From: an uncultured Solirubrobacterales bacterium
Lineage (GTDB): Bacteria > Actinomycetota > Thermoleophilia > Solirubrobacterales > 70-9
Length of the DNA stretch: 64,000 nt
Direction: 5' to 3'
Assembly: GCA_963734745.1 (NCBI GenBank)
Contig: CAVTIG010000001.1
Location: forward strand, 129,571 to 193,570
Shown here: positions 6,562 through 56,210 of the stretch, one piece after another
Numbering within the stretch: position 1 is the stretch's first letter
Layout: the number at the start of each line of letters is the position of its first letter
Notes under the pieces: model-generated
Database searches by the model: none
What the model was told of the DNA's origin: nothing
Seen by the model: the letters and a program-made list of their open reading frames with translations, nothing else
Made by a program: the position numbers and the translations under genes

Positions 6562-9500
6562 GTGGAGACGGCCACCCTGCAGATCGAGATGCCCGAGATG
6601 GGCGAATCGGTCACCGAGGGGATCGTGCTCGAGTGGCACGTCGCCGAGGGCGACTTCGTCAACGAGGGCGACACGGTCGTCGAGATATCGACCGACAAGG
6701 TCGACGCCGAGGTGCCGGCTCCTACTGCCGGGGTCATTACCAAGCTGCTGGCTCAAGTCGACGACGAGGTGCCGGTTGGGGCACCGCTGGCTGAGATGGC
6801 CCCCGGTGATTCCGGTGAGGGTTCAAGCGGATCGACCGCGGGGCCTGACGCGGCGTCGGGGGGGCCTGCGGGCGGGGGCGGGGCCTCCGTTCTCGGCCCC
6901 CCCGACACCACGCCACCCGCGGGTGTAACCGCTGGAACAGCCAGCGGGACCAACGGGGACGATGGAGTCCGGGCCACTCCAGTTGCTCGTCGCGTTGCTG
7001 CTGAGCTGGGGGTTGACCTTGGCGGACTCGCCGGGAGCGGTCCAGGGTCGAAGGTCACTAAGGAGGACGTGGTCGCTGCGGCGGACGGGGGCGCGGCCTT
7101 GGAGAGGCCTGCAGCTTCTGGGGAGGCGAAAGCTTTGCGGGGGCCGGCCGGGATGCTTGGCTTCGGCTATGAACGAGAGTCGGTCGGTTCCTACGGCTAC
7201 CTCGTTCCGGACCGTTGCCGTCGACGTGCTCGATGCGAAGCGCGGGGCGCTTAATGGGGTGCTGAAGGAGCGGGGGATGAAGGTTTCCTTCACCCATCTG
7301 ATCGCCTGGGCGATCGTCCAGGCCGCCAAGGAGTGGCCGGTGATGGTCCGCACCTACGAGGAGCGGGATGGGAAGCCGTTTGCGCTCGAGGGGGGGCCGG
7401 TCAACCTCGGCATCGCCGTCGACGTCGAGCGCAAGGACGGCTCCCACAGCCTCATGGTCCCGGCGATCAAGGGCGCCGACGGCCTCGACTTCGCCGCCTT
7501 CCACGCCTATTACGAGGACCTGATCACCAAGACGCGGGAGAACAGGCTCAGCCCCGACGACTTCCAGGGCACCAACGTCTCGCTGACCAACCCGGGCGGC
7601 ATCGGCACCGTCGCCTCGGTCCCCCGCCTGATGAGCGGCCAGAGCGCGATCGTCGCCACCGGCTCGATCGCCTACCCGGCCGAGTGGGCGCACGCCGCGC
7701 CGGAGCGGATCCGCCAGCTCGGCGTCTCCAAGGCGATGACGCTGACCTCGACCTACGACCACCGGGTGATCCAGGGCGCCGAGTCCGGCTCCTTCCTGCG
7801 CCGCATCGAGCAGCTATTGCAGGGCGAGGACGGCTTCTACGAGGGGATCGCCGCGAATCTCGGTGTCGAGATCGCGCCGATCGCCGCCGCCCATCCCGCC
7901 TCGGCCTCCGCCCCGCCGCTCGGCGCCGCGCCCGCCCCCGCCGCTGCGGTCCCCGACGAGGAGCTCCTCCAGGCCGTCGAGTCGGCGACCTCCCTGCTGA
8001 AGGGCTACCGCACCCACGGACACCTCGCCGCCCGCCTCGACCCGCTCGGCTCCGCGCCCGAGGGCGACCCCTCGATCCAGCCCGAGAACCTCAACCTCAC
8101 CCCGGAGCTGATGGCGAAGGTCCCCGCCTCGATCCTCCGCATCGGCGTCCCCGGCGAAACCCTGCTGGAGGCGCTGCCGCGGCTGCGGGAGGCCTACTGC
8201 GGGACGATGGCCTACCAGTTCGAGCACCTCTCCTCGCACGAACAGCGGGAATGGATGCGCGAGATGGTCGAGACCGGCGCCCACCGCCGGCCCCTCACCG
8301 ACGACGAGAAACGGCGCCTCCTCGACCGCCTGCTCGACGTCTTCGAGTTCGAGCGCTTCCTCGAGAAGGCCTACCTGGGCCAGAAGATGTTCTCGATCGA
8401 GGGGCTCGACGCGGTCATCACGATGCTCGACGAGCTGGTCACCCTCGCCGGCCGGGCCGGCGCCGAGGAGGTCGTCTTCGGGATGGCCCACCGCGGCCGC
8501 CTCGGCGTCCTCGCCCACAACCTCGGCCGCTCGGTCGAGTCGATCCTCGCCGAGTTCGAGGGCGACAAGCGGATCGACGCGGTGAAGGCCGTCGCCGCGA
8601 TCCCCCACGGGGGCACCGGCGACGTCAAGTACCACCACGGCCACCGGGGCGTCTACGAGACCAGCGAGGGCGAGAGGATCTCCGTCCGCCTCTACCCGAA
8701 CCCCAGCCACCTCGAGTTCGTCGACCCGGTGGTGACCGGCGGCGCCCGCTTCCTCCAGTCCGACCTCGACGGCCCCAGGCTCACCCACGACACGAAGCGC
8801 GCCGTCCCGGTCCTCCTGCACGGCGACGCCGCCTTCCCCGCCCAGGGCGTCGTCGCCGAGACTCTCAACCTCCAGTCGCTGAAGGGCTACAGCACCGGCG
8901 GCACCGTCCACATCATCCAGAACAACCAGGTGGGCTTCACCACCGACCCCAAGGAGGCCCGCTCCACCCCCTACGCGGCCGACATGGCTAAGGGCTTCGA
9001 CGTGCCGATCGTCCACGTCAACGCCGACGACGTCGAGGCCTGCTCGGCGGCGATCCGCCTCGCCATGGCCTACCGCGAGCGCTGGGCGCGCGACATCGTC
9101 ATCGACCTGATCGGCTACCGCCGCTTCGGCCACAACGAGACCGACGAGCCCGCCTACACCCAGCCGCTGATGGCGGCGAAGATCAAGGCCCACCCGCCTG
9201 TTTCGGAGATCTACGCGAAGAAGCTGATCGGCGAGGGGATCGTCAGCGCCGAGGACGTCGAGCGGGCGTCGAAGGAGCGCCACGAGGAGATGTCCGCCGC
9301 GCTCAAGGACCTGCGCCGCAAGATGGACCTGGGCGAGTACGAGGACCCAACCCTGACCACCGTCGGCACCGGCGAGCTGGACCGCACCGCCAGCCCCCCG
9401 GTCGACACCGCCGTGCCGGCCGAGAAGCTCCGCGCCCTCAACGAGGCGCTGCTGAAGGCGCCGGAGAGCTTCACCGTCCACCGCAAGCTGCGCCGCCCGC

Positions 9501-10573
9501 TCGCCAGGCGGCTGGAGGCGATCGAGGAGGGCGGCATCGACTTCGGCCACGCCGAGGCGCTCGCCTTCGCCTCGCTGCTCACCGAGGGCGTCCACACCCG
9601 CCTCACCGGCCAGGACACCGAGCGCGGCACCTTCTCCCACCGCCACCTCGTCCTCCACGACGAGAACACCGGCCTCGAGTACTGCCCGATGCAGAACCTC
9701 GAGGGCGCCTCTGCCCCCTTCGAGCTGTACAACAGCCCCCTCTCGGAGATCGCCTGCCTCGGCTTCGAGTACGGCTACTCGACCGCGACGCCCAGCGCCC
9801 TCGTCCTCTGGGAGGCGCAGTTCGGCGACTTCGCCAACGCCGGGCAGGTGATCGTCGACAGCTTCATCGTCTCCGGCGAGGCGAAGTGGGGGCAGACCAG
9901 CCGCCTCACCCTGCTGCTGCCGCACGGCTACGAGGGCTCCGGCCCCGAGCACTCCAGCGCCCGCATCGAGCGCTTCCTGGCGCTTGGCGCCGAGGGCAAC
10001 ATCCGGATCGCCAACCCGACAACCGCCGCCCAGTACTTCCACCTGCTGCGCCGCCAGGCGCTGATCCGAAAGCCGCGCCCGATGATCGTCTTCACCCCGA
10101 AGGGCCTGCTGCGCCTCGACCGCGCCGCGGCGACCCTGGAGGAGCTGTCCGATGGCTCCTTCCACTTCATCCTCGACGACCCGACCGCCGACGGCCGCCG
10201 CGAGAAGGTCGAGCGCCTCGTGGTCTGCACCGGCAAGGTCTACTTCGACATGGACTCCAGCGAGCGCCGCGCGGCCGCCGAGAACGTCGCCATCGCCCGC
10301 GTCGAGCAGCTCTACCCGTTCGCCCACGAGCAGCTGGCCGAGCTGATCGCCACCTACCCGAACCTGAGGGAGATCGCCTGGGTGCAGGAGGAGCCGCGAA
10401 ACATGGGCGCCTGGAAGGTGATGTCGCGCCGCATGCCGGACCTCCTCCCCGAGGGGATCGAGCTGCGCTACATCGGCCGCCCCGGCCGCGCCAGCCCCGG
10501 CGAGGGCTACTCCGCCGCCCACGCCCGCGAGCAGGAGCGCATAGTCCTCACCGCCCTCTCCCCCGGCGCCTGA
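6562..10573 (+). CDS. odhA: multifunctional 2-oxoglutarate dehydrogenase: lipoyl domain + E3-binding domain + E2 succinyltransferase core + E1 (ThDP) component; apparent 1-nt frameshift near 7160
   Basis: GTG 6562 follows the RBS taaggat. Domains in order: lipoyl domain (MPEMGESVTEG...EISTDKVDAEVPAP), PSBD (ATPVARRVAAELGVDL), E2 core (SVPTATSFRTV...TYDHRVIQGAESG), then about 900 aa of E1o (YRTHGHLAARLDPLG...). The frame changes between AKALRGPAGML and AMNESRSVPTA with no stop/start structure. Confidence 0.9.
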
Positions 10574-23137: not shown

Positions 23138-23192
23138 GGTTCCGCTGTTCCTTTGCCCAGTTATATGGGGATAAAGAACAGCGGAAGCTGGG
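23138..23192. repeat. REP-like palindromic element
   Basis: TTCCGCTGTTCCTTTGCCC (23140-23158), loop AGTTATAT, GGGGATAAAGAACAGCGGAA (23167-23186). The 3' arm has two changes. Located immediately 3' of the mutase stop (23195). Confidence 0.85.
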
Positions 23193-32402: not shown

Positions 32403-32455
32403 AGCTCCGCTGTTCCTTTGCCTCATATAACGGGGCAAAGGAACAGCGGAGGGGG
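32403..32455. repeat. REP-like palindromic element
   Basis: CTCCGCTGTTCCTTTGCC (32405-32422), loop TCATATAACGG, GGCAAAGGAACAGCGGAG (32434-32451): a perfect 18-bp stem. Directly abuts the stop of the IMPase gene (32457). Confidence 0.9.
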
Positions 32456-37041: not shown

Positions 37042-37779
37042 ATGCTCGAGCTGCGGGGGGTCGGCAAGTCGTTCACCTTGGGGGGCTCTCCGGTCGAGGT
37101 GCTGCACGGCGTCTCCTTCGAGATCAGGCCGGGCAAGCTGGTGGCGATCGTCGGGCCCTCCGGGAGCGGCAAGAGCACGCTGCTCAACCTGATCGGGACG
37201 CTGGACTCCCCCACCGCCGGCGGCGTCCTCTTCGAGGGCCGCGACGTCGGCGCCCTCGGCGCCGCCGCGAGGGCGCGGTTCCGGGCGGCAAACCTCGGCT
37301 TCGTCTTCCAGTTCTTCAACCTGCTGCCGGGGCTGACCTCCCGCCAGAACGTCGAGCTTGCCGCGGCGATCGCCGGGCAGGACAGGGCGAGGGCGCGGGC
37401 CCGCGCCGGCGAGCTGCTCGAGGCGGTCGGGCTCGGCGACAGGGTCGACGCCGCCGCCCGCAACCTCAGCGGCGGGCAGATGCAGCGCGTCGCGATCGCC
37501 AGGGCGCTGGTCAACGACCCGCGGCTGATCCTCGCCGACGAGCCGACCGGGAACCTCGACCAGCGCAACGCGGGGCAGATCCTCGAGCTGCTCCGCGCGC
37601 AGGCGACCGGCGACCGCGCCGTGGTGATGGTCACCCACGACCACGAGCTCGCCGAGCGCTTCGCCGACGAGATCGTCTCCCTCGTCGACGGCCGCGTTGC
37701 CGAGATCGCGACAGGCGATCCGAACGGCGACCGGAGCAGCGGGCTGCTCTCGAGCCTGATGGCGCTGGCGAGGAGATGA
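37042..37779 (+). CDS. ABC transporter ATP-binding protein (MacB/LolD-type)
   Basis: Walker A GPSGSGKSTLLN, signature LSGGQMQRVAIARAL, Walker B ILADEPTGNLD. Confidence 0.9.
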   Translation: MLELRGVGKSFTLGGSPVEVLHGVSFEIRPGKLVAIVGPSGSGKSTLLNLIGTLDSPTAGGVLFEGRDVGALGAAARARFRAANLGFVFQFFNLLPGLTSRQNVELAAAIAGQDRARARARAGELLEAVGLGDRVDAAARNLSGGQMQRVAIARALVNDPRLILADEPTGNLDQRNAGQILELLRAQATGDRAVVMVTHDHELAERFADEIVSLVDGRVAEIATGDPNGDRSSGLLSSLMALARR

Positions 37780-40289
37780 AGGGGGCGAAAGCCCAGGCCA
37801 GGGTCGCCGCGCTGATGACCCGCCACCTGCTGCGGGTGATGTCGCGGCAGCGGGCTCGGGTGGCCGTGCTGTGGGCCGCGCTCGTCCTCGCCCTGGGGAT
37901 CGGCGTCGGCCTGCTCGCCTTCGTCACCAGCATCGAGGACTCCTACCAGGCGCGCGGGCATGCGGTGGGCGGGCTCTCGGACGTGCAGGTCGAAGCGGTC
38001 GCGGAGTCCTCGCTGCAGCCCGGCGTCACCGCCCGCCTCAGCCGCCTCCACGGCACGCGCTACGCGGTGCCGATGGCCCAGCAACGCGTCACCCTCGAAG
38101 CGGCCGGAAGGACCGCCGTCGCCACCGCGGTCGGCGTCGACCGCTCGGCGCGCCGGCTGCGCAGCGCCGTGCAGCGCGAGCTGAAGGTGCCGTCGGGCGG
38201 CGCGGCGCGGCGCGGCCTGCTGCTGACCACGAAGCTGGCCGATCGCCTCGGCGGGGTCGAGCCGGGACACCGGATCCGGGTCTTCGCCTACGGCCACACG
38301 TTCCGGCCCCGAGTGGCCAAGGTCGTCGAGGTCGATCCCGCGATCGACGACGTCATGACCCTGCCGCGGGCCCAGCTCGAGCGCCTGCGCGGCGCGCCGG
38401 GGAGGCCGACGATCGTCTACGTGAAGCTCGATCCCGGCGCCTCCCCCGCGGCATGGGAGCGCCGCGCCCGCCACGTCCTGCCGGCCAACGCCGAGCTGAC
38501 CACGGCGGCGGAGAACCAGGCCGAGCTCAACCACGTTCTCGACTTCACGGTCAGGGCCCCGACCTTCGTCTTCGGGCTCGTCGTGCTGGCGATCCTCGGG
38601 CTGCTGATCTACGTCCTGCAGCTGATGCGAATGCTGGAGCGGCAGGAGGACATCGGCCTGCTCGGGGCGCTGGGCTCGCGGCGGGCGCCGCTGATCGTCG
38701 CCGAGAGCGCGATCCTCGCGGTCCTGCTGGCCTTCGCGGTCGTTCCGGGGGCGCTGGTCGGCACGCCGATCGCCCGCTACCTCGCAGCCCAGGTCCCCGA
38801 TTACCTGACCGACGTCTTCGGCTTCAACATGCAGGTCGCGGTCCATCCGGGCGTGGTCGCGGTGGCGGCCGGGGTCGCCCTGGTGGTCGGCGTGGCGGCG
38901 ACGGTCGCCGCGCTGGCCTCAGCGCGCGGCTCGGTCGCCGAGCAGCTCGGGCGCTCGCCGCAGGCCGGCGCGACCGTGGTCACGACGATCTCGCTGCGCG
39001 CCGCGCTCTCGCTGCTGGGCGCGGGCGGCGCCGGCCTGGCGGTCGGCCTGCTGCTCAGCGACGCCGGCCTCTACCCGTTCGCCGCGGTGACCGTCCTGGC
39101 CGGTCTCGCCCTCGTCACCCCGGGCGTGGTCGGGCTCGCCGCGATCGCGCTGGGACGAGGCGGTGGGAACGGGTCGAAGGCGGCGATGGTCGCCCGCGCC
39201 GCGATCGCGGCGAACCCGCGCCGGGCGGCGATGGCGGCCGCGATCATGGCGCTGGGAATCGCCGCGGTGGTCTCGCCGCTGCTCGCCGAGCGGGCGATCG
39301 TCAAGTACAAGGACCGCATCGTCACGGCGATCCGCCCCGGCGCCGAGGAGCTGGTCGGCTCCGACGACTCCTACTACAGCGTGCCGATCACCCCGGCCTT
39401 CGCCCGCGGGGCGCTGCGCGACCCGGCGTCGCGTGCCCAGTCGGCGGTGTTCGCCTTCGTCGACTACCGCGGCCGCAAGATCGAGCTGCGGGGCGTCGAC
39501 AGCAGCCGTCTCGACGGCATCTTCCGGGACGGCTTCGGCCTGCCGCGCGCCCTGCCGCAGCTGCGTCGCAACCCGGGAGGCGTGCTGATCTCGCGCGTGA
39601 TGGCCGCCGGGCTCGGACTCGAGACCGGCGATCGGATCCGGATCCGGACGGCGGTCGGGCCGCGGCGCTTCAAGATCGTCGGCGAGGCCGACGACATCTC
39701 CTGGCCGTCGGGGACCGTCTACCTCGACATCGGCCGCTACCGCCGGCTCTTCCGCACCGACGGCGTCAACGCGTTCGCGGTGAAGCGGGCCGGACTGATC
39801 GACCCGAAGGCGGTGGCGCGGCTCGCGCCGCTGAAGTCGATCACCGGGAGGCAGCTGATCGGGCGGATCGACGCCCAGATGAACAAGAGCACACAGGGCC
39901 TGTTCGCGATGCGGGTGCTCACCCTGCTCGCCGCTTTGGTGGCGGTCAGCGGGATCATCGCCACCGCGGTCCTGTCGCGGCGCCGCGAGTGGGCGGTGCT
40001 GCGCGCGATCGGGATGGGCAACGGCGGCCTCTTCGCCGCGCTGGCCCTGGAGACCCTCCTGGTGATGGCGATCGGCGGCGCTTGCGGAGCGCTTGGCGGG
40101 ATCGTCTCCTTCCGCGGGCCGGGGATGGCCTTCCTCGAGTCCCAGGGGTACGTGATCTCCGGCGACCTGGCGCTGCCGATCGTCGCGGCGGTGGCGGGCG
40201 GCGCGGCGGTGGCCGGGACCCTGGCCGCCGCGATCCCCGCCTGGCTTACGGCCCGGGTCCCGCTGTCGGACGCGCTCTCCTATGAGTAG
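37776..40289 (+). CDS. FtsX-like ABC transporter permease with duplicated FtsX domains
   Basis: 837 aa. Start overlaps the upstream stop (ATGA). Two 4-TM FtsX-type bundles are separated by large extracytoplasmic regions. Confidence 0.85.
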   Translation: MKGAKAQARVAALMTRHLLRVMSRQRARVAVLWAALVLALGIGVGLLAFVTSIEDSYQARGHAVGGLSDVQVEAVAESSLQPGVTARLSRLHGTRYAVPMAQQRVTLEAAGRTAVATAVGVDRSARRLRSAVQRELKVPSGGAARRGLLLTTKLADRLGGVEPGHRIRVFAYGHTFRPRVAKVVEVDPAIDDVMTLPRAQLERLRGAPGRPTIVYVKLDPGASPAAWERRARHVLPANAELTTAAENQAELNHVLDFTVRAPTFVFGLVVLAILGLLIYVLQLMRMLERQEDIGLLGALGSRRAPLIVAESAILAVLLAFAVVPGALVGTPIARYLAAQVPDYLTDVFGFNMQVAVHPGVVAVAAGVALVVGVAATVAALASARGSVAEQLGRSPQAGATVVTTISLRAALSLLGAGGAGLAVGLLLSDAGLYPFAAVTVLAGLALVTPGVVGLAAIALGRGGGNGSKAAMVARAAIAANPRRAAMAAAIMALGIAAVVSPLLAERAIVKYKDRIVTAIRPGAEELVGSDDSYYSVPITPAFARGALRDPASRAQSAVFAFVDYRGRKIELRGVDSSRLDGIFRDGFGLPRALPQLRRNPGGVLISRVMAAGLGLETGDRIRIRTAVGPRRFKIVGEADDISWPSGTVYLDIGRYRRLFRTDGVNAFAVKRAGLIDPKAVARLAPLKSITGRQLIGRIDAQMNKSTQGLFAMRVLTLLAALVAVSGIIATAVLSRRREWAVLRAIGMGNGGLFAALALETLLVMAIGGACGALGGIVSFRGPGMAFLESQGYVISGDLALPIVAAVAGGAAVAGTLAAAIPAWLTARVPLSDALSYE

Positions 40290-42395: not shown

Positions 42396-45300
42396 ATGCC
42401 CGGCTTTCGCCCCGTCGACCCCAAGCAGTCCTTCCCCGAGCTGGAGGAGCGCGTCCTGGCGCGCTGGCGCGAGCGCGACGTCTTCCACCGCTCGCTCGCC
42501 AACCGCGAGGGCGCCGAGGTCTGGAGCTTCTACGAGGGGCCGCCGACCGCCAACGGCCGCCCCGGCTCCCACCACGTCCTCTCCCGCGTCTTCAAGGACG
42601 TCTACCCGCGCTACCGCACGATGCGCGGCTACCGCGTCCCGCGCAAGGCCGGCTGGGACTGCCACGGCCTGCCGGTCGAGCTGGAGGTCGAGAAGGAGCT
42701 GGGCATCTCCTCCAAGCAGGAGATCGAGGAGTACGGGATCGCCGAGTTCAACCGGCGCTGCCGCGAGTCGGTCTTCGAGTACGTCGAGGAGTGGAACCGG
42801 CTGACCGAGCGGATCGGCTTCTGGATCGACCTCGACGACCCCTACGTCACCCTCGACGACGACTACATCGAGTCGGTCTGGTGGTCGCTGCGCAAGCTCT
42901 GGGACGACGGGCGGCTCTACGAGGGCCACAAGGTCGTCCCCTACTGCCCGCGCTGCGGCACCGCGCTCTCCTCGCACGAGGTGGCGCTGGGCTACAAGGA
43001 CGTCGAGGACCCGTCCATATACGTGCGCTTCCCGCTGCTCGACGAGGGCGGCGGCGAGACGGGCGAGTCGCTGCTGGTCTGGACGACGACGCCGTGGACG
43101 CTGCCCGGCAACGTCGCGGTCGCGGTCGCGCCCGACGTCACCTACGTGCGGGCGCGGGTCGGCGAGCGAGACGCTGGTCCTCGCCGAGCCGCTGGTCGAG
43201 AAGGTGCTCGGCGAGGACGTCGAGGTCGCTCGACCGCTTCCCCGGCCGCGACCTGGTCGGCCGTCGCTACAAGGGCCCCGTCTTCGACGCTCACCGACCG
43301 CGGGCCGCGGCGGCTTCCCGGTCCTCGCCGGCGACTTCGTCACCACCGAGGACGGCACCGGCCTCGTCCACATCGCCCCCGCCTTCGGCGAGGACGACTA
43401 CGCGGTGGCCGCCGAGAACGGCATCTTCGACCCGACCAGCCACGGCACCCTCTACAACCCGGTCGGCCTCGACGGCAACTTCGACGACCGGGTCACCGGC
43501 TTCGCAGGGCCGCTTCGTCAAGGACCCCGAGGTGACCGCGGGCGCTGATCGCCGACCTCGACGCGCCGCGGCCTGCTCTTCCGCGAGCAGGTCTACGAGC
43601 ACGCCTACCCGCACTGCTGGCGCTGCGGCACGCCGCTCCTCTACTACGCCAAGTCGAGCTGGTACGTCGCCACCTCGCAGGCACGCGACGCAGCTGCTCG
43701 CCAACAACGAGCAGATCGGCTGGCACCCCGAGCACATCAAGCACGGCCGCTTCGGCAAGTGGCTGGAGAACAACGTCGACTGGGCGCTCTCGCGCGACCG
43801 CTACTGGGGCACGCCGCTGCCGATCTGGGAGTGCGCCGGCGAGGGCTGCGACGGGCGCTTCTGCGCCGGCTCGGTCGCCGAGCTGCGCGAGCGGGCGAGG
43901 GGCGAGGTCCCGGACGACCTCCACCGCCCCTACATCGACGAGGTGACGCTCGACTGCGAGCGCTGCGGCGGCGAGATGCGCCGGGTCGAGTCGGTGATCG
44001 ACACCTGGTACGACAGCGGCGCGATGCCCTTCGCGCAGTTCCACTACCCGTTCGAGAACGAGGAGCTGTTCGAGGAGCGCTTCCCGGCCGACTTCATCTG
44101 CGAGGCGATCGACCAGACCCGCGGCTGGTTCTACACCCTGCTCGCCGAGTCGACCCTGCTCTTCGACACCTCCAGCTACCGCAACTGCGTCTGCCTCGGC
44201 CTGATCCTCGACCCCGAGGGCCAGAAGATGTCGAAGAGCAAGGGCAACGTGGTCGAGCCCTGGGACGTGATCGGCGCCCACGGCGCCGACGCCTTCCGCT
44301 GGTACTACCTGACCGCGCAGCAGCCCTGGTCGGGCTACCGCTTCTCGGTCGAGACGGTCGGCGAGTCGGTCCGCCAGTTCCTGCTCACCCTCTGGAACAC
44401 CTACTCGTTCTGGGTCCTCTACGCGAACGCCGAGAACCTGGGCCCCGCCGACTTCGACCCCCCACACCGCTTCGCTGTTCCTTTGCCCCGAATAGCGGGG
44501 CAAAGGAACAGCGGAACGCGGGGGAGGACCTCGACCGCTGGGCGCTCTCGCGGCTGCAGGCGACGATCGCGACGGTGCGCGAGCGGATGGACGAGTTCGA
44601 CTGCACCGCCGCCGGGCGGGCGATCGCCGCCTACGTCGAGGAGCTCTCCAACTGGTACGTGCGGCTCTCGCGCCGCCGCTTCTGGGACGGCGACCGCGCC
44701 GCCTTCGCGACGCTGCGCCACTGCCTGCTGGAGACGGCGGCGCTGCTCGCCCCCTTCACCCCCTTCCTCGCCGACGAGATCCACCTCAACCTGGCCGGCG
44801 GGGAGGCGGAGGAGCTGGGCGAGCTGCCCGACTCGGTCCACCTGCGCGACTTCCCCGAGCCCGACCCGGCGCTCGCCGACCCCGAGCTGGAGGCGGCGAT
44901 GGAGGCGGTGCGGCTGCACGGTCGAGCTGGGCCGCGCCGCCCGCGCCCAGGCGAAGGCCAAGGTGCGCCAGCCGCTGCGCCGCGCCGTGATCGTCGCCAC
45001 CGACGCCGAGCGCGAGGCGATCTCGGCCCGCGCCGACCTGGTCAAGGCCGAGCTGAACGTCAAGGAGCTGGACTTCGTCTCCGAGCGAGGGCGAGCTGGT
45101 CAGCTACGCGGTCAAGCCCAACTACCGCGCGCTCGGGCCGCGCTTCGGCAACCGGATGCCGCAGGTGGCCGCCGCGGTCGAGGCGCTCGACCCGGCGCAC
45201 GTCGCCGAGGTGATGTCCGACGGCGGCGAGGTCGGGATCAACGTCGACGGCGACGACCACACGATCGGCCCCGACGACGTCACCCTCGCCCTGCAGCCGC

Positions 45301-45620
45301 TGGAGGGCTACGAGGTCGAGGCCGAGGCGGGCCACGCGGTGGCCCTCCAGCTGGAGCTCGACGACGAGCTGCGCCGCGAGGGCCTCGCCCGCGAGATCGT
45401 CCACGCGGTCCAGAACGCCCGCAAAGAGGCGGGCCTGGAGATCACCGACCGGATCGAGCTGACCCTGGGCGGCGACGAAGAGCTCCTCGCCGCCGCCCGG
45501 GAGCACGAGCCCTACCTGACCGGCGAGGTCCTCGCCACCTCGGTCGCCTACGACGCGACCGACGGCGCCGCGGCCAAGGTCGACGGCCGCGAGCTGCGGA
45601 TCGCCCTCAGCCGGGCCTGA
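42396..45620 (+). CDS. ileS: isoleucine--tRNA ligase, interrupted by about 10 apparent 1-nt frameshifts and carrying an intragenic REP-like element
   Basis: Conserved IleRS text is recoverable across three frames: [99 protein letters not shown] and the C-terminal ELRIALSRA. No in-segment nonsense codons. Confidence 0.9.
44468..44520. repeat. REP-like palindromic element inside the ileS coding sequence
   Basis: TTCGCTGTTCCTTTGCCCC (44471-44489), loop GAATAGC, GGGGCAAAGGAACAGCGGAA (44497-44516). The 5' arm lacks one C relative to its own 3' arm and to all other copies. Confidence 0.9.
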
Positions 45621-48807: not shown

Positions 48808-51700
48808 CTCTTCCAGCAGGAAGACGAAGGACTCGTACGGCGCGCCGGTGGCGCGGGTGAGGCCGATCTCGCAGGTGCGGTTGCTGGAGAGGTGGGCGTC
48901 GAAGCTGGCGGCCGCTGAGCTCCTCGGCCTGATCGCGCGTTGCGGAGGCGGTCAACTCGGGGTGGGAGATGCCGCGGTCGCCGGCGAAGCCGCAGCAGGT
49001 CGCCGACGGGGCGACGTAGACGTCGTCGGCGAGGGCGTCGGCGAGAGAGCGCGAGCCGCCCGGCGAGACCCATGTGGCGGGTCGCGCAGGTCGGGTGGAC
49101 GGTGGCCGAGCCGACCCGCTCGCCGACCTCGAGCCAGGGCAGCAGGCGGTCGTGCGCCCAGGCGACCGAGTCGACGATCTCCAGCTTGCCGAGCCGCTCG
49201 GCGTTTTCCTCGCTCAGCACCCCCTCGCCCGGGTCGACGACGCCATGGGTACAGGAGGCGGCGTCGATCACGATCGGCAACGCGCCCTCGCCGCTCCAGT
49301 CCCAGAGGCGCTCGACCATCTCGTTCGCCTTGTGGCGGTGGGCCTCGCCGAAGCCTTTCGAGCTCCAGGGCAGCCCACAGCAGGTGCCGATCACGTCGTC
49401 GGGTATCCAGACGGGCAGGCCGGCGCGACGCGAGACCTCGACCAGAGCCTCGGCGACCAGGCGACCACCGCCGATGGGCCTGAAAAGTGCGCCTATATCG
49501 TCGACTTTTCGGCCCATCGGCGGGGGGGGGCCGAAGATGCGGTTGGTGCAGGAGGGGACGTAGACGGCGGCGGCGCCCTCGTGCAGGGTCGTTGGCAGCT
49601 TCCCGGGCGCCGGCGCGGGCAACCCCCGCCCTCGCTTGGTCCGCCGCGCCAGCGGCCCGCCGAGGCGCAGGCCGGCGCGCGACGCGCCTCTCGACCACGC
49701 CCCAGCGCTTGGCGATGGCGAGCGCCGCACGCTCCGCACGCTCGGTGTGCCGCTTGGCGCGCAGCTCCTTGACCAGCTTGCCGGTGTCGATCCCGAGCGG
49801 GCAGGCGAGCTGGCAGGAGCCGTCCGCGGCGCAGGTCTCCAGCGAGTCGTACTCGTACTCCTCCAGCAGCGCCCGCTGTACGCGGCGAGCCCGCCGGCTG
49901 GCGGGCCATCTCGCGCCGCAGCACGATCCGCTGGCGCGGCGTCGTGGTCAGGTTGCGGCTCGGGCAGACCGGCTCGCAGAAGCCGCACTCGACGCAGGTG
50001 GTCGCGGACTCCTCGATCGCGCGGCGTCGTTTTCAGGTTGCGCAGGTGCGCCTCCGGGTCGCGGTTCAGCACGACGCCCGGGAGCGAGCACCCCGTCGGG
50101 GTCGGCCAGCCGCTTCACCCGCCACATCAGCTCGGTCGCCTTCTCCCCCCACTCGCGCTCCACGTAAGGGGCCATGTTGATCCCGGTGCCGTGCTCGGCC
50201 TTCAGCGAGCCGTCGTACTTGCCGACGATCAGCTCGACCAGCTTCGCCATGAAGGCCTCGTAGCGGTCGAGGTCCTCCTGCTTGGCGAAGTCGGGGGTGA
50301 GCATGAAGTGGAGGTTGCCGGCGGAGGCGTGGCCGGCGACGCCGGGCAGGAAGCCGTGCTCGCCGAGCAGCGCCTGCAGGTCGCGGGCGCCCTCGGCGAT
50401 CCGCTCCGGCGGCACGCAGACGTCCTCGACGATCAGCGACGTGCCGGGCAGCCGCAGCCGGCCGACCAGCCCGTGCAGGCCCTCGCGCACGCGCCAGGCC
50501 AGCTCGATCTCCTCGGCGTCGCGGGTGAAGGCGATCGGGCGGATCAGCTCGTGGGAGGCGAGGATCTCGTTCGCCTTCGCGACGTAGTCGTCGAGCTCCG
50601 CGTCGGTGGCGGCGCCGAACTCGACCAGGAGCACCGCCGACTCGGGCGGCAGCTCCTTCCACTCCTCGGGGGCGCCGACCATGTTCCAGGCGGCGGTGAT
50701 CAGCGCCGGGGCGACCATCAGCTCGACCGCGGTGGCGCCGCGATCGACCAGGTCGCGGACCGGGGCGACCGCCTCGTCGATGCCGGGGAAGTGGATCCAG
50801 GAGGTGGCGGTGCGGGCGGGCAGCGGCACCGTCTCGAAGACCGCCTCGGCGAGGAAGGCGAGCGTGCCCTCCGAGCCGACGATCAGGCGGCGGAAGATCT
50901 CCAGCGGCTCGTCGGCGTCGAGGAAGGCGCAGAGCCGGTAGCCGGTCGTGTTCTTGATCGCGAACTTGCGGCGGATGCGCTCGCTCAGCTCGGCGTCGGC
51001 GCGGATCTCGTCGCGGATCGCCGCGAGGCCGGCGGCCAGCTCGGGCTCCGCGGCGGCGAAGCGCTCGGCCGCGCCGGGCGCCGCGGTGTCGATCAGTCGT
51101 GCCGGAGGGCAGCACGAAGGTCATCGAGCGGACGGTCGAGTAGGAGTCGTGGACGACGCCGCAGCGCATCCCGCCCGAGTTGTTGGCGATCACCCCGCCG
51201 ACCGTGGCGATGTCGGTGCTGGCCGGGTCGGGGCCGAGCTTGCGGCCGTGCGGGGCGAGGACGCGGTTGGCGTGGCCGAGCACGGTGCCGGGCTTGACGC
51301 GGGCCAGAGCGCCGCCCTCCTCGACCGAGACGCCGCCGAAGTGGCGGCGCACGTCGACCAGGATCCCGTCGCTCTGCCCCTGGCCGTTGAGGCTGGTGCC
51401 GCCGGCGCGGAAGGTGACGGGGACGCCGCGCTCGCGGCCGTAGGCGAGGACCTTGGCGACGTCGCCGGCGTCGCGGGCCATCACCACCGCCTGCGGGAAG
51501 AGCCGGTAGGGGCTGGCGTCGGAGGCGTAGCGGACGATGTCGCTGACGCGTCCCAGCACCCGGTCGGCGCCGAGCAGCGCCTCCAGCTCGCCGCGCAGCG
51601 GCTGCGCGGCGCCGGCGGCGAGCGCGTCCGGGGCGCGGTCGGGGGCCGGCTCCGAGGGCTCCGGCGCCAGCGCCTCGACCCTGTGCTTCAGCAGCGCCAC
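48790..51700 (-). CDS. FAD-binding and Fe-S/CCG-domain oxidoreductase (GlcD-GlcF-type fusion, D-2-hydroxyacid dehydrogenase-like), at least 5 apparent frameshifts
   Basis: GTG 51700. FAD domain (FRAGGTSLNGQ, ATVGGVIANNSGG), oxidase C-domain (GSLKAEHGTGINMAPYVEREWG) and a Cys-rich C-terminal half (TCCGLPWSSKGF, DAASCTHG, CCGFAGDRG). The text is distributed over three frames. Confidence 0.8.
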
Positions 51701-53336: not shown

Positions 53337-53392
53337 CGCTCCGCTGTTCCTTTGCCCCGCTATATCCAGGCAAAGGAACAGCGGAAGCTTGT
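53337..53392. repeat. REP-like palindromic element
   Basis: TCCGCTGTTCCTTTGCC (53340-53356), loop CCGCTATATCCA, GGCAAAGGAACAGCGGA (53369-53385), flanked by AAGCTT. Lies in the divergent gap between the ThDP enzyme and the M15 peptidase. Confidence 0.88.
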
Positions 53393-53439: not shown

Positions 53440-54159
53440 GTGACCGCACCGACCGACAGCCCTCGACAGCAGGGACATCCGGTACGCGCGGCGCGCTCGC
53501 ATCGAGTCGCTCGCGGCCCTCGCCCTGACGATCCTCGTCTGCGTCACGGTCGGCCTCGCGCAGGCCGGCCCGGCCTCGGTTCGGCTGCATCAACGACGAC
53601 CGGCAGGATCGTCCCGATCCCCGCCTCGATCCCCCACCAGGCCGGGAGCATGATCGACAGCCGCCTGATGCCGGACCTGCGCTGGCTCTCCTCCCACTTC
53701 CCGATCTACATCAGCGAGGGCTACTCCGGCCCGCTCCCGGACGGCAGCTACGTCGGCTGCCACCGCTGCCACGTCAACAACTCCGACCACTACAACGGGC
53801 TCGCCGTCGACATCGTGCCGCTGAGCTGGAGCCCCCACTGCGATGCGAACTGGAATGGCGTCACCCGGCTGGCGAAGTGGGCCGAGCCGCAGCAGAACCG
53901 ACCGGTCGCGCCCTTCCGCTGGGTCGGGTACGACGGCGACGCGGGCCACGGCTGCGGCAACCACCTCCACCTCTCCTGGGACCACGCCCCGGCGCCTCCC
54001 CACACCCTCGCCGACTGGGTGGCGGTGTTTCCGGTGGGTGCGCCGAGCGCCCGGCCCAGCAAGAAGACACAGCCCCCGCCGGCCAAGCCGAAACAGCCGC
54101 CGGGGCCGACCGGGGGGTTCGAGCCGTCGACCCCCGGCGGGGTCTCTCCCGGCGACTGA
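53440..54159 (+). CDS. secreted LAS-type zinc peptidase (M15/VanY-like); 5' end uncertain
   Basis: Zn-ligand motifs NNSDHYNGLAVDIVP (SxHxxGxAxD) and GHGCGNHLHLSW (HxH), with a Pro/Lys-rich C-terminal tail. A signal-peptide-like stretch (RRARIESLAALALTILVCVTVGLAQAGPAS) lies in a different frame at 53480-53585. Confidence 0.65.
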   Translation: MTAPTDSPRQQGHPVRAARSHRVARGPRPDDPRLRHGRPRAGRPGLGSAASTTTGRIVPIPASIPHQAGSMIDSRLMPDLRWLSSHFPIYISEGYSGPLPDGSYVGCHRCHVNNSDHYNGLAVDIVPLSWSPHCDANWNGVTRLAKWAEPQQNRPVAPFRWVGYDGDAGHGCGNHLHLSWDHAPAPPHTLADWVAVFPVGAPSARPSKKTQPPPAKPKQPPGPTGGFEPSTPGGVSPGD

Positions 54160-54168
54160 CCGCTGCAA

Positions 54169-54215
54169 CCGGTGCAACGTTTTGCCCCCGCATCGGGGGC
54201 AACGCGTTGCACCGG
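54169..54215 (+). terminator. compound two-tier hairpin downstream of the M15 peptidase gene
   Basis: Outer stem CCGGTGCAACG (54169-54179) / CGTTGCACCGG (54205-54215). Inner stem TTGCCCCC (54182-54189) / GGGGGCAA (54195-54202), loop GCATC, with symmetric 2x2 internal loops. Confidence 0.5.
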
Positions 54216-56095: not shown

Positions 56096-56148
56096 AGCTT
56101 CCGCTGTTCCTTATCTGCAAATAACGGGGTAAAGGAACAGCGGAGCGA
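56096..56148. repeat. REP-like palindromic element (tandem pair, copy 1, slightly degenerate)
   Basis: CTTCCGCTGTTCCTTATC (56098-56115), loop TGCAAATAAC, GGGGTAAAGGAACAGCGGAG (56126-56145). Confidence 0.85.
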
Positions 56149-56157
56149 CGCTTCCCA

Positions 56158-56210
56158 CGCCGCGCTGTTCCTTTGCTCCATATAACGGGGCAAAGGAACA
56201 GCGGAAGCTT
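56158..56210. repeat. REP-like palindromic element (tandem pair, copy 2)
   Basis: CGCGCTGTTCCTTTGCTCC (56161-56179), loop ATATAAC, GGGGCAAAGGAACAGCGGAAG (56187-56207). Ends 3 nt before the convergent ALDH stop (56213). Confidence 0.88.

Follow-up and report, generated by a model that had tools for sequence, protein, structure and literature searches.

A dispersed palindrome in a variable linker of isoleucyl-tRNA synthetase, probably translated in frame, in an uncultured Solirubrobacterales bacterium

The window analyzed here, a 64,000-nucleotide (nt) stretch from an uncultured Solirubrobacterales bacterium (GenBank assembly GCA_963734745.1, contig CAVTIG010000001.1, positions 129,571 to 193,570), carries a gene for isoleucyl-tRNA synthetase (ileS, encoding IleRS) with a palindrome of the repetitive extragenic palindromic (REP) type inside its coding sequence. 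The enzyme is of type 2 (eukaryote/archaeal-like). Its homologs contain PF00133, PF08264, and PF19302, a KMSKS motif is present in the three-frame translation, and its best match in the PDB is 8c8w (E = 2e-289, residues 5-1050). The features of the gene and of the palindrome within it are as follows.

42396-45617, + strand: ileS, type-2 isoleucyl-tRNA synthetase with a C-terminal DUF5915 region (three-frame translation, alignment, Pfam domains of homologs, PDB 8c8w)
44435-44526, + strand: whole variable linker from ...WVLYANAE to DLDRW, 92 nt, one short of a multiple of three
44458-44463, + strand: C-run that extends the palindrome outward by pairing with the G-run, 44520-44524 (folds, flank consensus)
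44468-44518, + strand: REP-like core hairpin with a 23-bp stem, 2 mismatches, and a 5-nt apical loop
44470-44489, + strand: 5′ arm of the hairpin, CTTCGCTGTTCCTTTGCCCC, one C short between 44473 and 44474 (TTC^GC)
44490-44496, + strand: loop of the hairpin, GAATAGC (three-frame translation)
44497-44516, + strand: 3′ arm of the hairpin, GGGGCAAAGGAACAGCGGAA, matching the copy at 56187-56206 over its full 20 nt
44520-44524, + strand: G-run, 3′ partner of the C-run at 44458-44463 (folds, flank consensus)

The ileS hairpin is a full-length member of a dispersed repeat family, GCTTC[C]GCTGTTCCTTTGCCCC-GAATAGC-GGGGCAAAGGAACAGCGGAACGC, and lies where the original prediction, made from the sequence alone, had placed it. 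Its 5′ arm equals the reverse complement of its 3′ arm minus one C (TTC^GCTG versus TTCCGCTG). The upstream and downstream ileS frames meet within this arm, and one added C joins them without a stop codon, as had been proposed. The missing C is present in the 3′ arm of the same element, in the other copies in the window, in the listed metagenomic copies, and in the ortholog at the related locus L001, which reads TTCCGCTGT at this site and whose junction (GAC CCC CCC CAC CGG TTC CGC TGT) is read in frame. The claim that all seven other window copies predict one sequence at this position was correct for the extra base, found in 7/7, but not for an identical reading, as only four of the seven read TTCCGCTG, two reading CTCCGCTG and one GCGCTG. 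A TAG stop in the loop closes the third phase through the hairpin (window frame 0, reading ...LFLCPE*), and the other two phases are open. The 92-nt linker has a folding energy of -53.9 kcal/mol. An Rfam search of the element returned only sub-threshold look-alikes of microRNA precursors (30-35 bits versus gathering scores of 82-100).

A search of the window for the 20-nt arm motif gave 13 occurrences, compared with 0.01 expected by chance. Besides the ileS element there are 7 hairpin copies (8 copies per 64 kb in all), and each of the 7 is intergenic. Some follow a stop codon, some separate convergent genes, and one precedes a start codon by 28 nt.

1790-1900, no strand assigned: intergenic doublet between convergent genes, with units at ∼1790-1838 (degenerate 3′ arm) and 1851-1900 (complete)
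23138-23188, no strand assigned: intergenic copy found by the arm motif search
32405-32451, no strand assigned: intergenic copy just downstream of an inositol-phosphatase-like gene
53338-53388, no strand assigned: intergenic copy ∼28 nt upstream of the start of a thiamine pyrophosphate (TPP)-enzyme gene
56097-56208, no strand assigned: intergenic doublet downstream of the fumarase stop codon, with units at 56097-56146 and 56159-56208

A metagenome scan for the complete palindrome identified 27 loci, and most of these copies have no spanning open reading frame (ORF) of coding quality. The family has the properties of a REP in the broad sense, being a short imperfect palindrome in many dispersed copies that are mainly intergenic and include the two window doublets beside stop codons. 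In an oriented alignment of 31 copies, the 5′ flanks are rich in C and the 3′ flanks in G. These flanks are complementary and not direct repeats; no direct repeats are evident, though the uncertainty of the boundaries leaves room for duplications of 2-4 nt. No consistent GTAG/CGTC tag was found in this alignment, where GTAG/CTAC or CGTC/GACG stands near an end in at most 3 of the 31 copies and at no fixed position. The family is also found inside long ORFs of three short-read Joint Genome Institute contigs, with coding-level GC content at third codon positions (GC3) on both sides of the element. These copies use the other stop-free phase (...SAVPLPxIxGQRNSG...). One host, in which the element spans residues 297-316 (L105:6811-6847), is a flavin-containing monooxygenase-like protein that matches PF00743 over profile positions 3-439 (E = 7e-83). 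The remaining two, a 779-amino-acid (aa) ORF that is apparently a membrane protein (L096:3021-3057) and a 345-aa ORF (L100:5403-5439), had no match in Pfam.

In most relatives the linker from ...WVLYANA(E) to DLDRW measures 39-45 nt, and its length among relatives ranges from 5 to 44 residues. Hairpin-bearing linkers were found at L001 (93 nt), L003 (87 nt), L005 (69 nt), L083 (90 nt), L084 (87 nt), L085 (84 nt), and L086 (75 nt), all in frame, in the same codon phase, and folding at -36 to -51 kcal/mol. In total, eight ileS elements besides that of the window are in frame in this phase. L003, a short-read metagenome-assembled genome (MAG) assembled with MEGAHIT, has an IleRS gene of 1,070 codons that runs without interruption through an in-frame palindrome (...ASRGSLSVPDGQKEPRDAN-DLDRW), in agreement with the proposal that the element adds ∼16-18 residues just before DLDRW.LSRL. 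Palindrome-free orthologs, which would have counted against the original prediction had they carried homologous residues, lack the insert residues: L004 (84% identity) reads RLAPSDFAATPEPGG, L114/P0001 reads DFDSSPQPTD, and the linker of PDB 8c8w is short, with the palindrome-encoded residues aligning to a gap. Among 71 IleRS sequences that span the site, 26 have palindrome-type inserts, 35 have the short linker only, and 10 are unclear. The inserts fall into type A, RGS(F/L)...KEP(R) (n = 9); type B, CS(F/L)...KEQ (n = 8), to which the window copy belongs; type C, SSF/TSH...KDE (n = 7); and the unrelated, longer type D, ...PEKSDMDPA.LPRP... (n = 2). The junction DFDPPxxFRC is common to the window, L001, and P0053, which suggests a single insertion event for those three.

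A second, unrelated palindrome lies at L001:9010-9095 and is translated in frame in a different loop of the L001 IleRS (...SSAAATPEKSDMDPASLPRS...). Its ∼30-bp stem encloses an AT-rich loop, GAAATCAGATATGGA. In P0083, P0074, and P0055 it is the YANA-DLDRW linker that holds this type of peptide, and no other DNA copies of this palindrome were found across the relatives' and metagenomic loci collected for the analysis.

Occupancy of the linker changes between near-identical genes. Over 1.2 kb of ileS, L115 (P0022) has 94.5% identity to the window, but the two sites hold different occupants, type B (CCGCTGTTCCTTTGCCCC) in the window and type C (GCGTTCGTTTTTGTCGCG) in L115. L114, which is ∼92% identical to the window, has an empty site. 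The 12 IleRS sequences nearest to that of the window (95-98% amino acid identity in the flanks) contain type C, type D, one unclassified insert, or nothing, and type B is found in none of the 12.

Across nine ileS elements, 174 of 207 stem cells (84%) are standard pairs, compared with 79-99 after displacement of the 3′ side by 1-3 nt, and both sides have changed at 14 of the 23 stem positions. For example, CTGTTCC/GGAACAG in the window is replaced by TTCGTCC/GGACGAA in L085, and Cys or Gly in the 5′ arm (TGT versus GGT) is coupled to Gln or Pro in the 3′ arm (ACA versus ACC). Conservation of the encoded peptide was considered and ruled out, as the residue changes are coupled across the arms (Cys...Gln versus Gly...Pro) in the way base pairing predicts. 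To judge from these alignments, it is the palindrome, and not the peptide, that persists. Some copies are decaying, with three mismatches in the 5′ arm of L001 and eroded apical stems in L003, L083, and L084.

The ileS copies also match the repeat family of their own genome. The ileS arm of L083 (CATCGCGCGGTTCCTTTGT) is identical at 19/19 positions to a copy 10.5 kb away, three L005 copies have TTATGG in common where the window family has TTTGCC, and in L001 and the window the ileS copy likewise matches the repeats of the same genome. This comparison covers L083, L005, L001, and the window, because no type A or C copies are present in the 10-kb flanks of L003, L084, L085, L086, and L115. The match therefore indicates that the linker was either colonized repeatedly or overwritten by the current family variant of each genome.

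The repaired window fragment of 408 aa was modeled with AlphaFold2 from an alignment with 49 homologs, and the model places the insert (∼residues 247-275) in a coil with a predicted local distance difference test score (pLDDT) of 47-69. The coil runs between the helix ending in ...WVLYANA (pLDDT 87) and the DLDRW helix (pLDDT 97), which supports the original reading. This low-confidence coil, together with the variability of linker length among relatives, suggests a tolerant and flexible loop.

As assembled, ileS contains 11 frame changes in its three-frame translation. They were positioned by a custom frameshift-aware alignment to the intact 1,070-aa IleRS of L003, tblastn being insufficient for the junctions, at 43160, 43227, 43288, 43311, 43503, 43537, 43562, 43689, 44458 (the element), 44916, and 45085. 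A single base is inserted at nine of these sites, a tenth break is a -2 event with the net effect of a +1, and the break at the element is the only net -1 in the gene. Each frame segment is 82-98% identical in protein sequence to intact orthologs, is free of in-frame stops, and has strong GC3 periodicity. Aligning the syntenic L001 proteins to the window revealed 22 further indels in 13.9 kb of neighboring genes, of which 16 are +1. The affected genes include those for fumarase, the TPP enzyme, a flavin adenine dinucleotide (FAD)-linked oxidase, UvrD, thioredoxin, and trehalose-phosphatase (trehalose-6-phosphate phosphatase), and their proteins are highly conserved and stop-free within each frame segment. 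An earlier hint from the GC3 frame plot that ileS alone was frame-broken, as a pseudogene might be, was dropped in view of these 22 neighboring indels. The closest relatives are Solirubrobacterales MAGs, many of them labeled MFD... with Flye-style contig names. These Flye-named relatives have fragmented ileS calls, out-of-frame N and C termini, and ORFs ending in or beside the element, and in sister assemblies of the same type such artifacts fall at different positions. From these comparisons, the frame breaks most likely reflect an indel-prone, probably long-read metagenome assembly and not gene decay. The observation that the reading frame changes exactly inside the element was confirmed, but it loses its weight as special evidence, being one of 11 breaks in ileS. 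Since the neighborhood holds ∼33 indels, a frame change inside the element is nothing special.

These ∼33 single-base indels lie over window positions 32400-56100; ∼25 are +1, often of C or G (GAGCTC read as GACGCTC), with further examples at 49686, 50018, 51094, 52793, and 55320. Other long genes, for example those at 7591-10501 and 37741-40231, seem to keep one frame on the GC3 plot, and the density of errors along the contig may be uneven. Among database entries of the clade, the IleRS sequences P0003, P0011, P0036, P0041, P0084, P0086, P0089, and P0094 are fragments of 340-700 aa, although the contigs reach 2.4 Mb. Their ends are out of frame, and in several cases the sequence breaks off within or beside the palindrome. 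Contig L002 ends 60 nt beyond the palindrome. Both assembly and gene calling seem prone to fail at the hairpin, and the combination of hairpin repeats with indel-prone long-read MAGs would account for split calls of an essential gene and for the many IleRS fragments of this clade in databases. The PolX-like gene at 46892-47921 matches the 573-aa L001 PolX only at residues 1-109 and 333-572, with ∼220 residues apparently missing and at least two frame breaks, for which a real deletion or a misassembly could be responsible.

The locus is very probably explained by a mobile REP-like palindrome that sits in a variable linker of IleRS and is translated as a tolerated surface loop, with the frame break representing a consensus error. 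The mobile element would be 50-70 nt long and would have settled in the naturally variable linker of a type-2 IleRS, between the helix that closes the catalytic half (...WVLYANA) and the helix with which the anticodon-binding domain opens (DLDRW.LSRL). Lying in one of its two stop-free phases, the element would therefore be transcribed and translated with ileS, adding ∼16 residues as a flexible surface loop that the enzyme presumably tolerates. The one-base deletion in the 5′ arm (TTC[C]GC) would be a consensus error of a metagenome assembly that is prone to indels and probably based on long reads. Across the wider clade, the linker may act as a permissive landing site that is repeatedly gained, lost, or overwritten by the current palindrome variant of each genome.

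Several points weigh against this interpretation. The presence/absence pattern implies at least 19 gain/loss steps on a neighbor-joining tree, but this tree rests on ∼270 highly similar residues and its resolution may be poor, and any recombination would make the number of steps too high. The phase is the same in all ileS elements, which suits one ancient insertion with conversion as well as it suits repeated insertion. The window copy equals the family consensus apart from the missing C, whereas the apparently orthologous copy at L001:10497-10541 differs at ∼8/47 positions, a contrast that simple neutral tolerance does not explain. The structure model is modest, with a mean pLDDT of 66.5 for the 408-aa fragment. 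Most assembly indels are +1 insertions, whereas that of the element is a deletion. We infer the artifactual nature of the missing C, and translation in this organism, from sequence comparison, the latter from the open frames and the intact orthologs. As an observation apart, the asymmetry between the window and L001 copies is one-sided in its changes, for which conversion from other copies, replacement, and selection are possible causes.

One alternative concerns the history of the element and not its identity. A single ancient insertion into the linker, followed by homogenization of the arms through hairpin-templated repair or gene conversion from other copies, with the empty sites as deletions, is possible but doubtful. 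It would account for the single codon phase of the type A, B, and C ileS elements, in contrast to the three non-ileS hosts, which use the other phase, and for their nearly constant spacing from DF and DLDRW, and it agrees with the junction common to the window, L001, and P0053. Against it, the ileS copies bear the lineage-specific signatures of their own genome's family, as in the 19/19 arm of L083, near-identical IleRS genes carry different types or none, and a wholly unrelated palindrome (type D) resides in the same linker of other relatives. Insertion may also be genuinely favored at the IleRS linker as a hotspot, or the linker may hold a “safe-haven” master copy that is kept vertically and either seeds the family of its genome or is refreshed by it. 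This would account for the constant match of the ileS copy to the variant of its own genome and for the pristine state of the window copy.

It is improbable that the hairpin is maintained by selection because it functions as RNA or DNA (by pausing translation at the domain boundary, stabilizing the mRNA, or binding a protein, for instance) and is not a tolerated selfish insertion, with the compensatory stem changes as the trace of that selection. The 84% stem pairing over nine diverged elements with double changes at 14 of 23 positions, the presence of a palindrome at this one site in 26 of 71 relatives, and the pristine state of the window copy beside the drifted L001 copy speak for such selection. 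However, independent insertion of ready-made palindromes yields the same covariation signal, about half of the close relatives are empty at the site (some at 95-97% amino acid identity), decay is visible in several copies (L001 in its 5′ arm; L003, L083, and L084 in their apical stems), an unrelated palindrome family also occupies the site, and the same elements are ordinary intergenic repeats elsewhere.

It is very unlikely that the window ileS is a decaying pseudogene with a real frameshift whose function has passed to an intact second ileS outside the window. The 11 breaks in 3.2 kb would fit such decay, but unrelated housekeeping neighbors carry the same kind of single-base indels (22 in 13.9 kb), and the sequence conservation, the stop-free segments, and the GC3 periodicity described above are intact. 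There is also no second ileS in the 64-kb window, and the artifacts of sister assemblies are differently placed.

Known -1 frameshift sites such as dnaX consist of a slippery heptamer followed by a stable hairpin. A real single C at 44473, with the palindrome and the heptamer C_CCC_CCA formed by the C-run and A44464 (44458-44464) driving programmed -1 ribosomal frameshifting to give full-length IleRS, has the required geometry in part (a slip of exactly -1 would carry the ribosome from window frame 2 into frame 1, as needed, and an X_XXY_YYZ heptamer with zero frame GAC CCC CCA lies 3-5 nt upstream of a 20- to 23-bp hairpin, resembling dnaX), yet it is scarcely credible, as the spacer is short (3-5 nt versus 5-9 nt in the definition), the ten other ileS breaks lack such signals and assembly error is simpler, the family consensus holds the extra C, an essential enzyme relying on inefficient frameshifting is implausible, and the requirement for a frameshift is not conserved, because orthologs with the same context, such as L001 with TTCCGC, are simply read through in frame. 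If it were true, an essential aminoacyl-tRNA synthetase would be made via a frameshift site created by a mobile element.

Palindromic repeats translated within genes are a known phenomenon with clear precedent. The original prediction pointed to the Rickettsia elements, which hold as a parallel, but the precedent is wider than was stated there. Di Nocera, De Gregorio, and Rocco (2013; PMC3733652) described intragenic GTAG- or CGTC-tagged REPs in several species, many of which encode 20-30 residues, with hosts that include tRNA synthetase genes of X. oryzae, E. litoralis, and S. alaskensis, and they reported different REPs at about the same site in the orthologous recB genes of two Xanthomonas species. 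Their survey covered 8 phyla, without Actinobacteria, and the REP superfamilies were defined by terminal GTAG or CGTC tags. The window family resembles those REPs as short dispersed palindromes that are mostly intergenic downstream of genes, often dimeric, and in a minority wholly within ORFs. In contrast, it is untagged, comes from Actinomycetota (Solirubrobacterales), and has a longer hairpin with a core of 47-53 nt (up to ∼70 nt with the C- and G-runs). The turnover at a single site among 71 orthologs, with types A to D and empty sites, is not reported in PMC3733652.

Rickettsia palindromic elements (Ogata et al. 2000), as summarized in PMC3184786 and PMC3733652, are repeats of 105-146 bp with a CGTC tag in AT-rich obligate intracellular alphaproteobacteria. 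According to these accounts, they too are palindromic repeats in frame in protein genes, including essential ones, and are translated, it is thought in tolerant surface regions. The window element, in contrast, is ∼50-70 nt, untagged, and from a soil actinobacterium of 71% GC; its sequence differs, and it does not belong to that family. The REPIN/RAYT systems (Nunvar 2010; Bertels and Rainey 2011), as presented in PMC3733652, share with the window family dispersed hairpins, lineage-specific variants, and adjacent doublets, whereas the window family has no GTAG tag, its doublets are direct, not inverted pairs, and no RAYT gene was noticed, no search aimed at one having been made. Repeats fused internally into coding sequences, such as Nezha, BOX/SPRITE, and the enterobacterial RU elements, were reviewed by Delihas (2011; PMC3184786). 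Miniature inverted-repeat transposable elements are likewise small non-autonomous repeats with stable stem-loops that are sometimes fused inside coding sequences, but they consist of terminal inverted repeats around a core with target-site duplications, whereas the window element is a single hairpin.

In the literature we found no description of palindromic repeats for Solirubrobacterales or Thermoleophilia, and the paper on signature indels of Thermoleophilia (PMC6544083) lists no IleRS indel. What is new is the phylum, the untagged family, and the unusually well-resolved turnover at a single site. The present case would extend in-frame selfish palindromes in essential genes to Actinomycetota, in GC-rich and largely uncultured soil Solirubrobacterales. 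An IleRS linker of 13-16 residues that is either empty or filled with at least four palindrome types among orthologs of 95-98% identity provides a natural series for studying how REP-like elements move or are replaced, how a protein absorbs hairpin-encoded loops, and how such loops decay.

Other palindromes occur in the window and in the relatives. A different palindrome with a 22-bp stem, CCGGTGCAACGTTTTGCCCCCG-cat-CGGGGGCAACGCGTTGCACCGG, lies at 54169-54215, at or just beyond the 3′ end of a conserved hypothetical gene (53650-54200). Several further palindrome families are found in relatives, for example, at L005:1457-1516, at L005:20770-20823, and at L005:18354 together with L086:18814.

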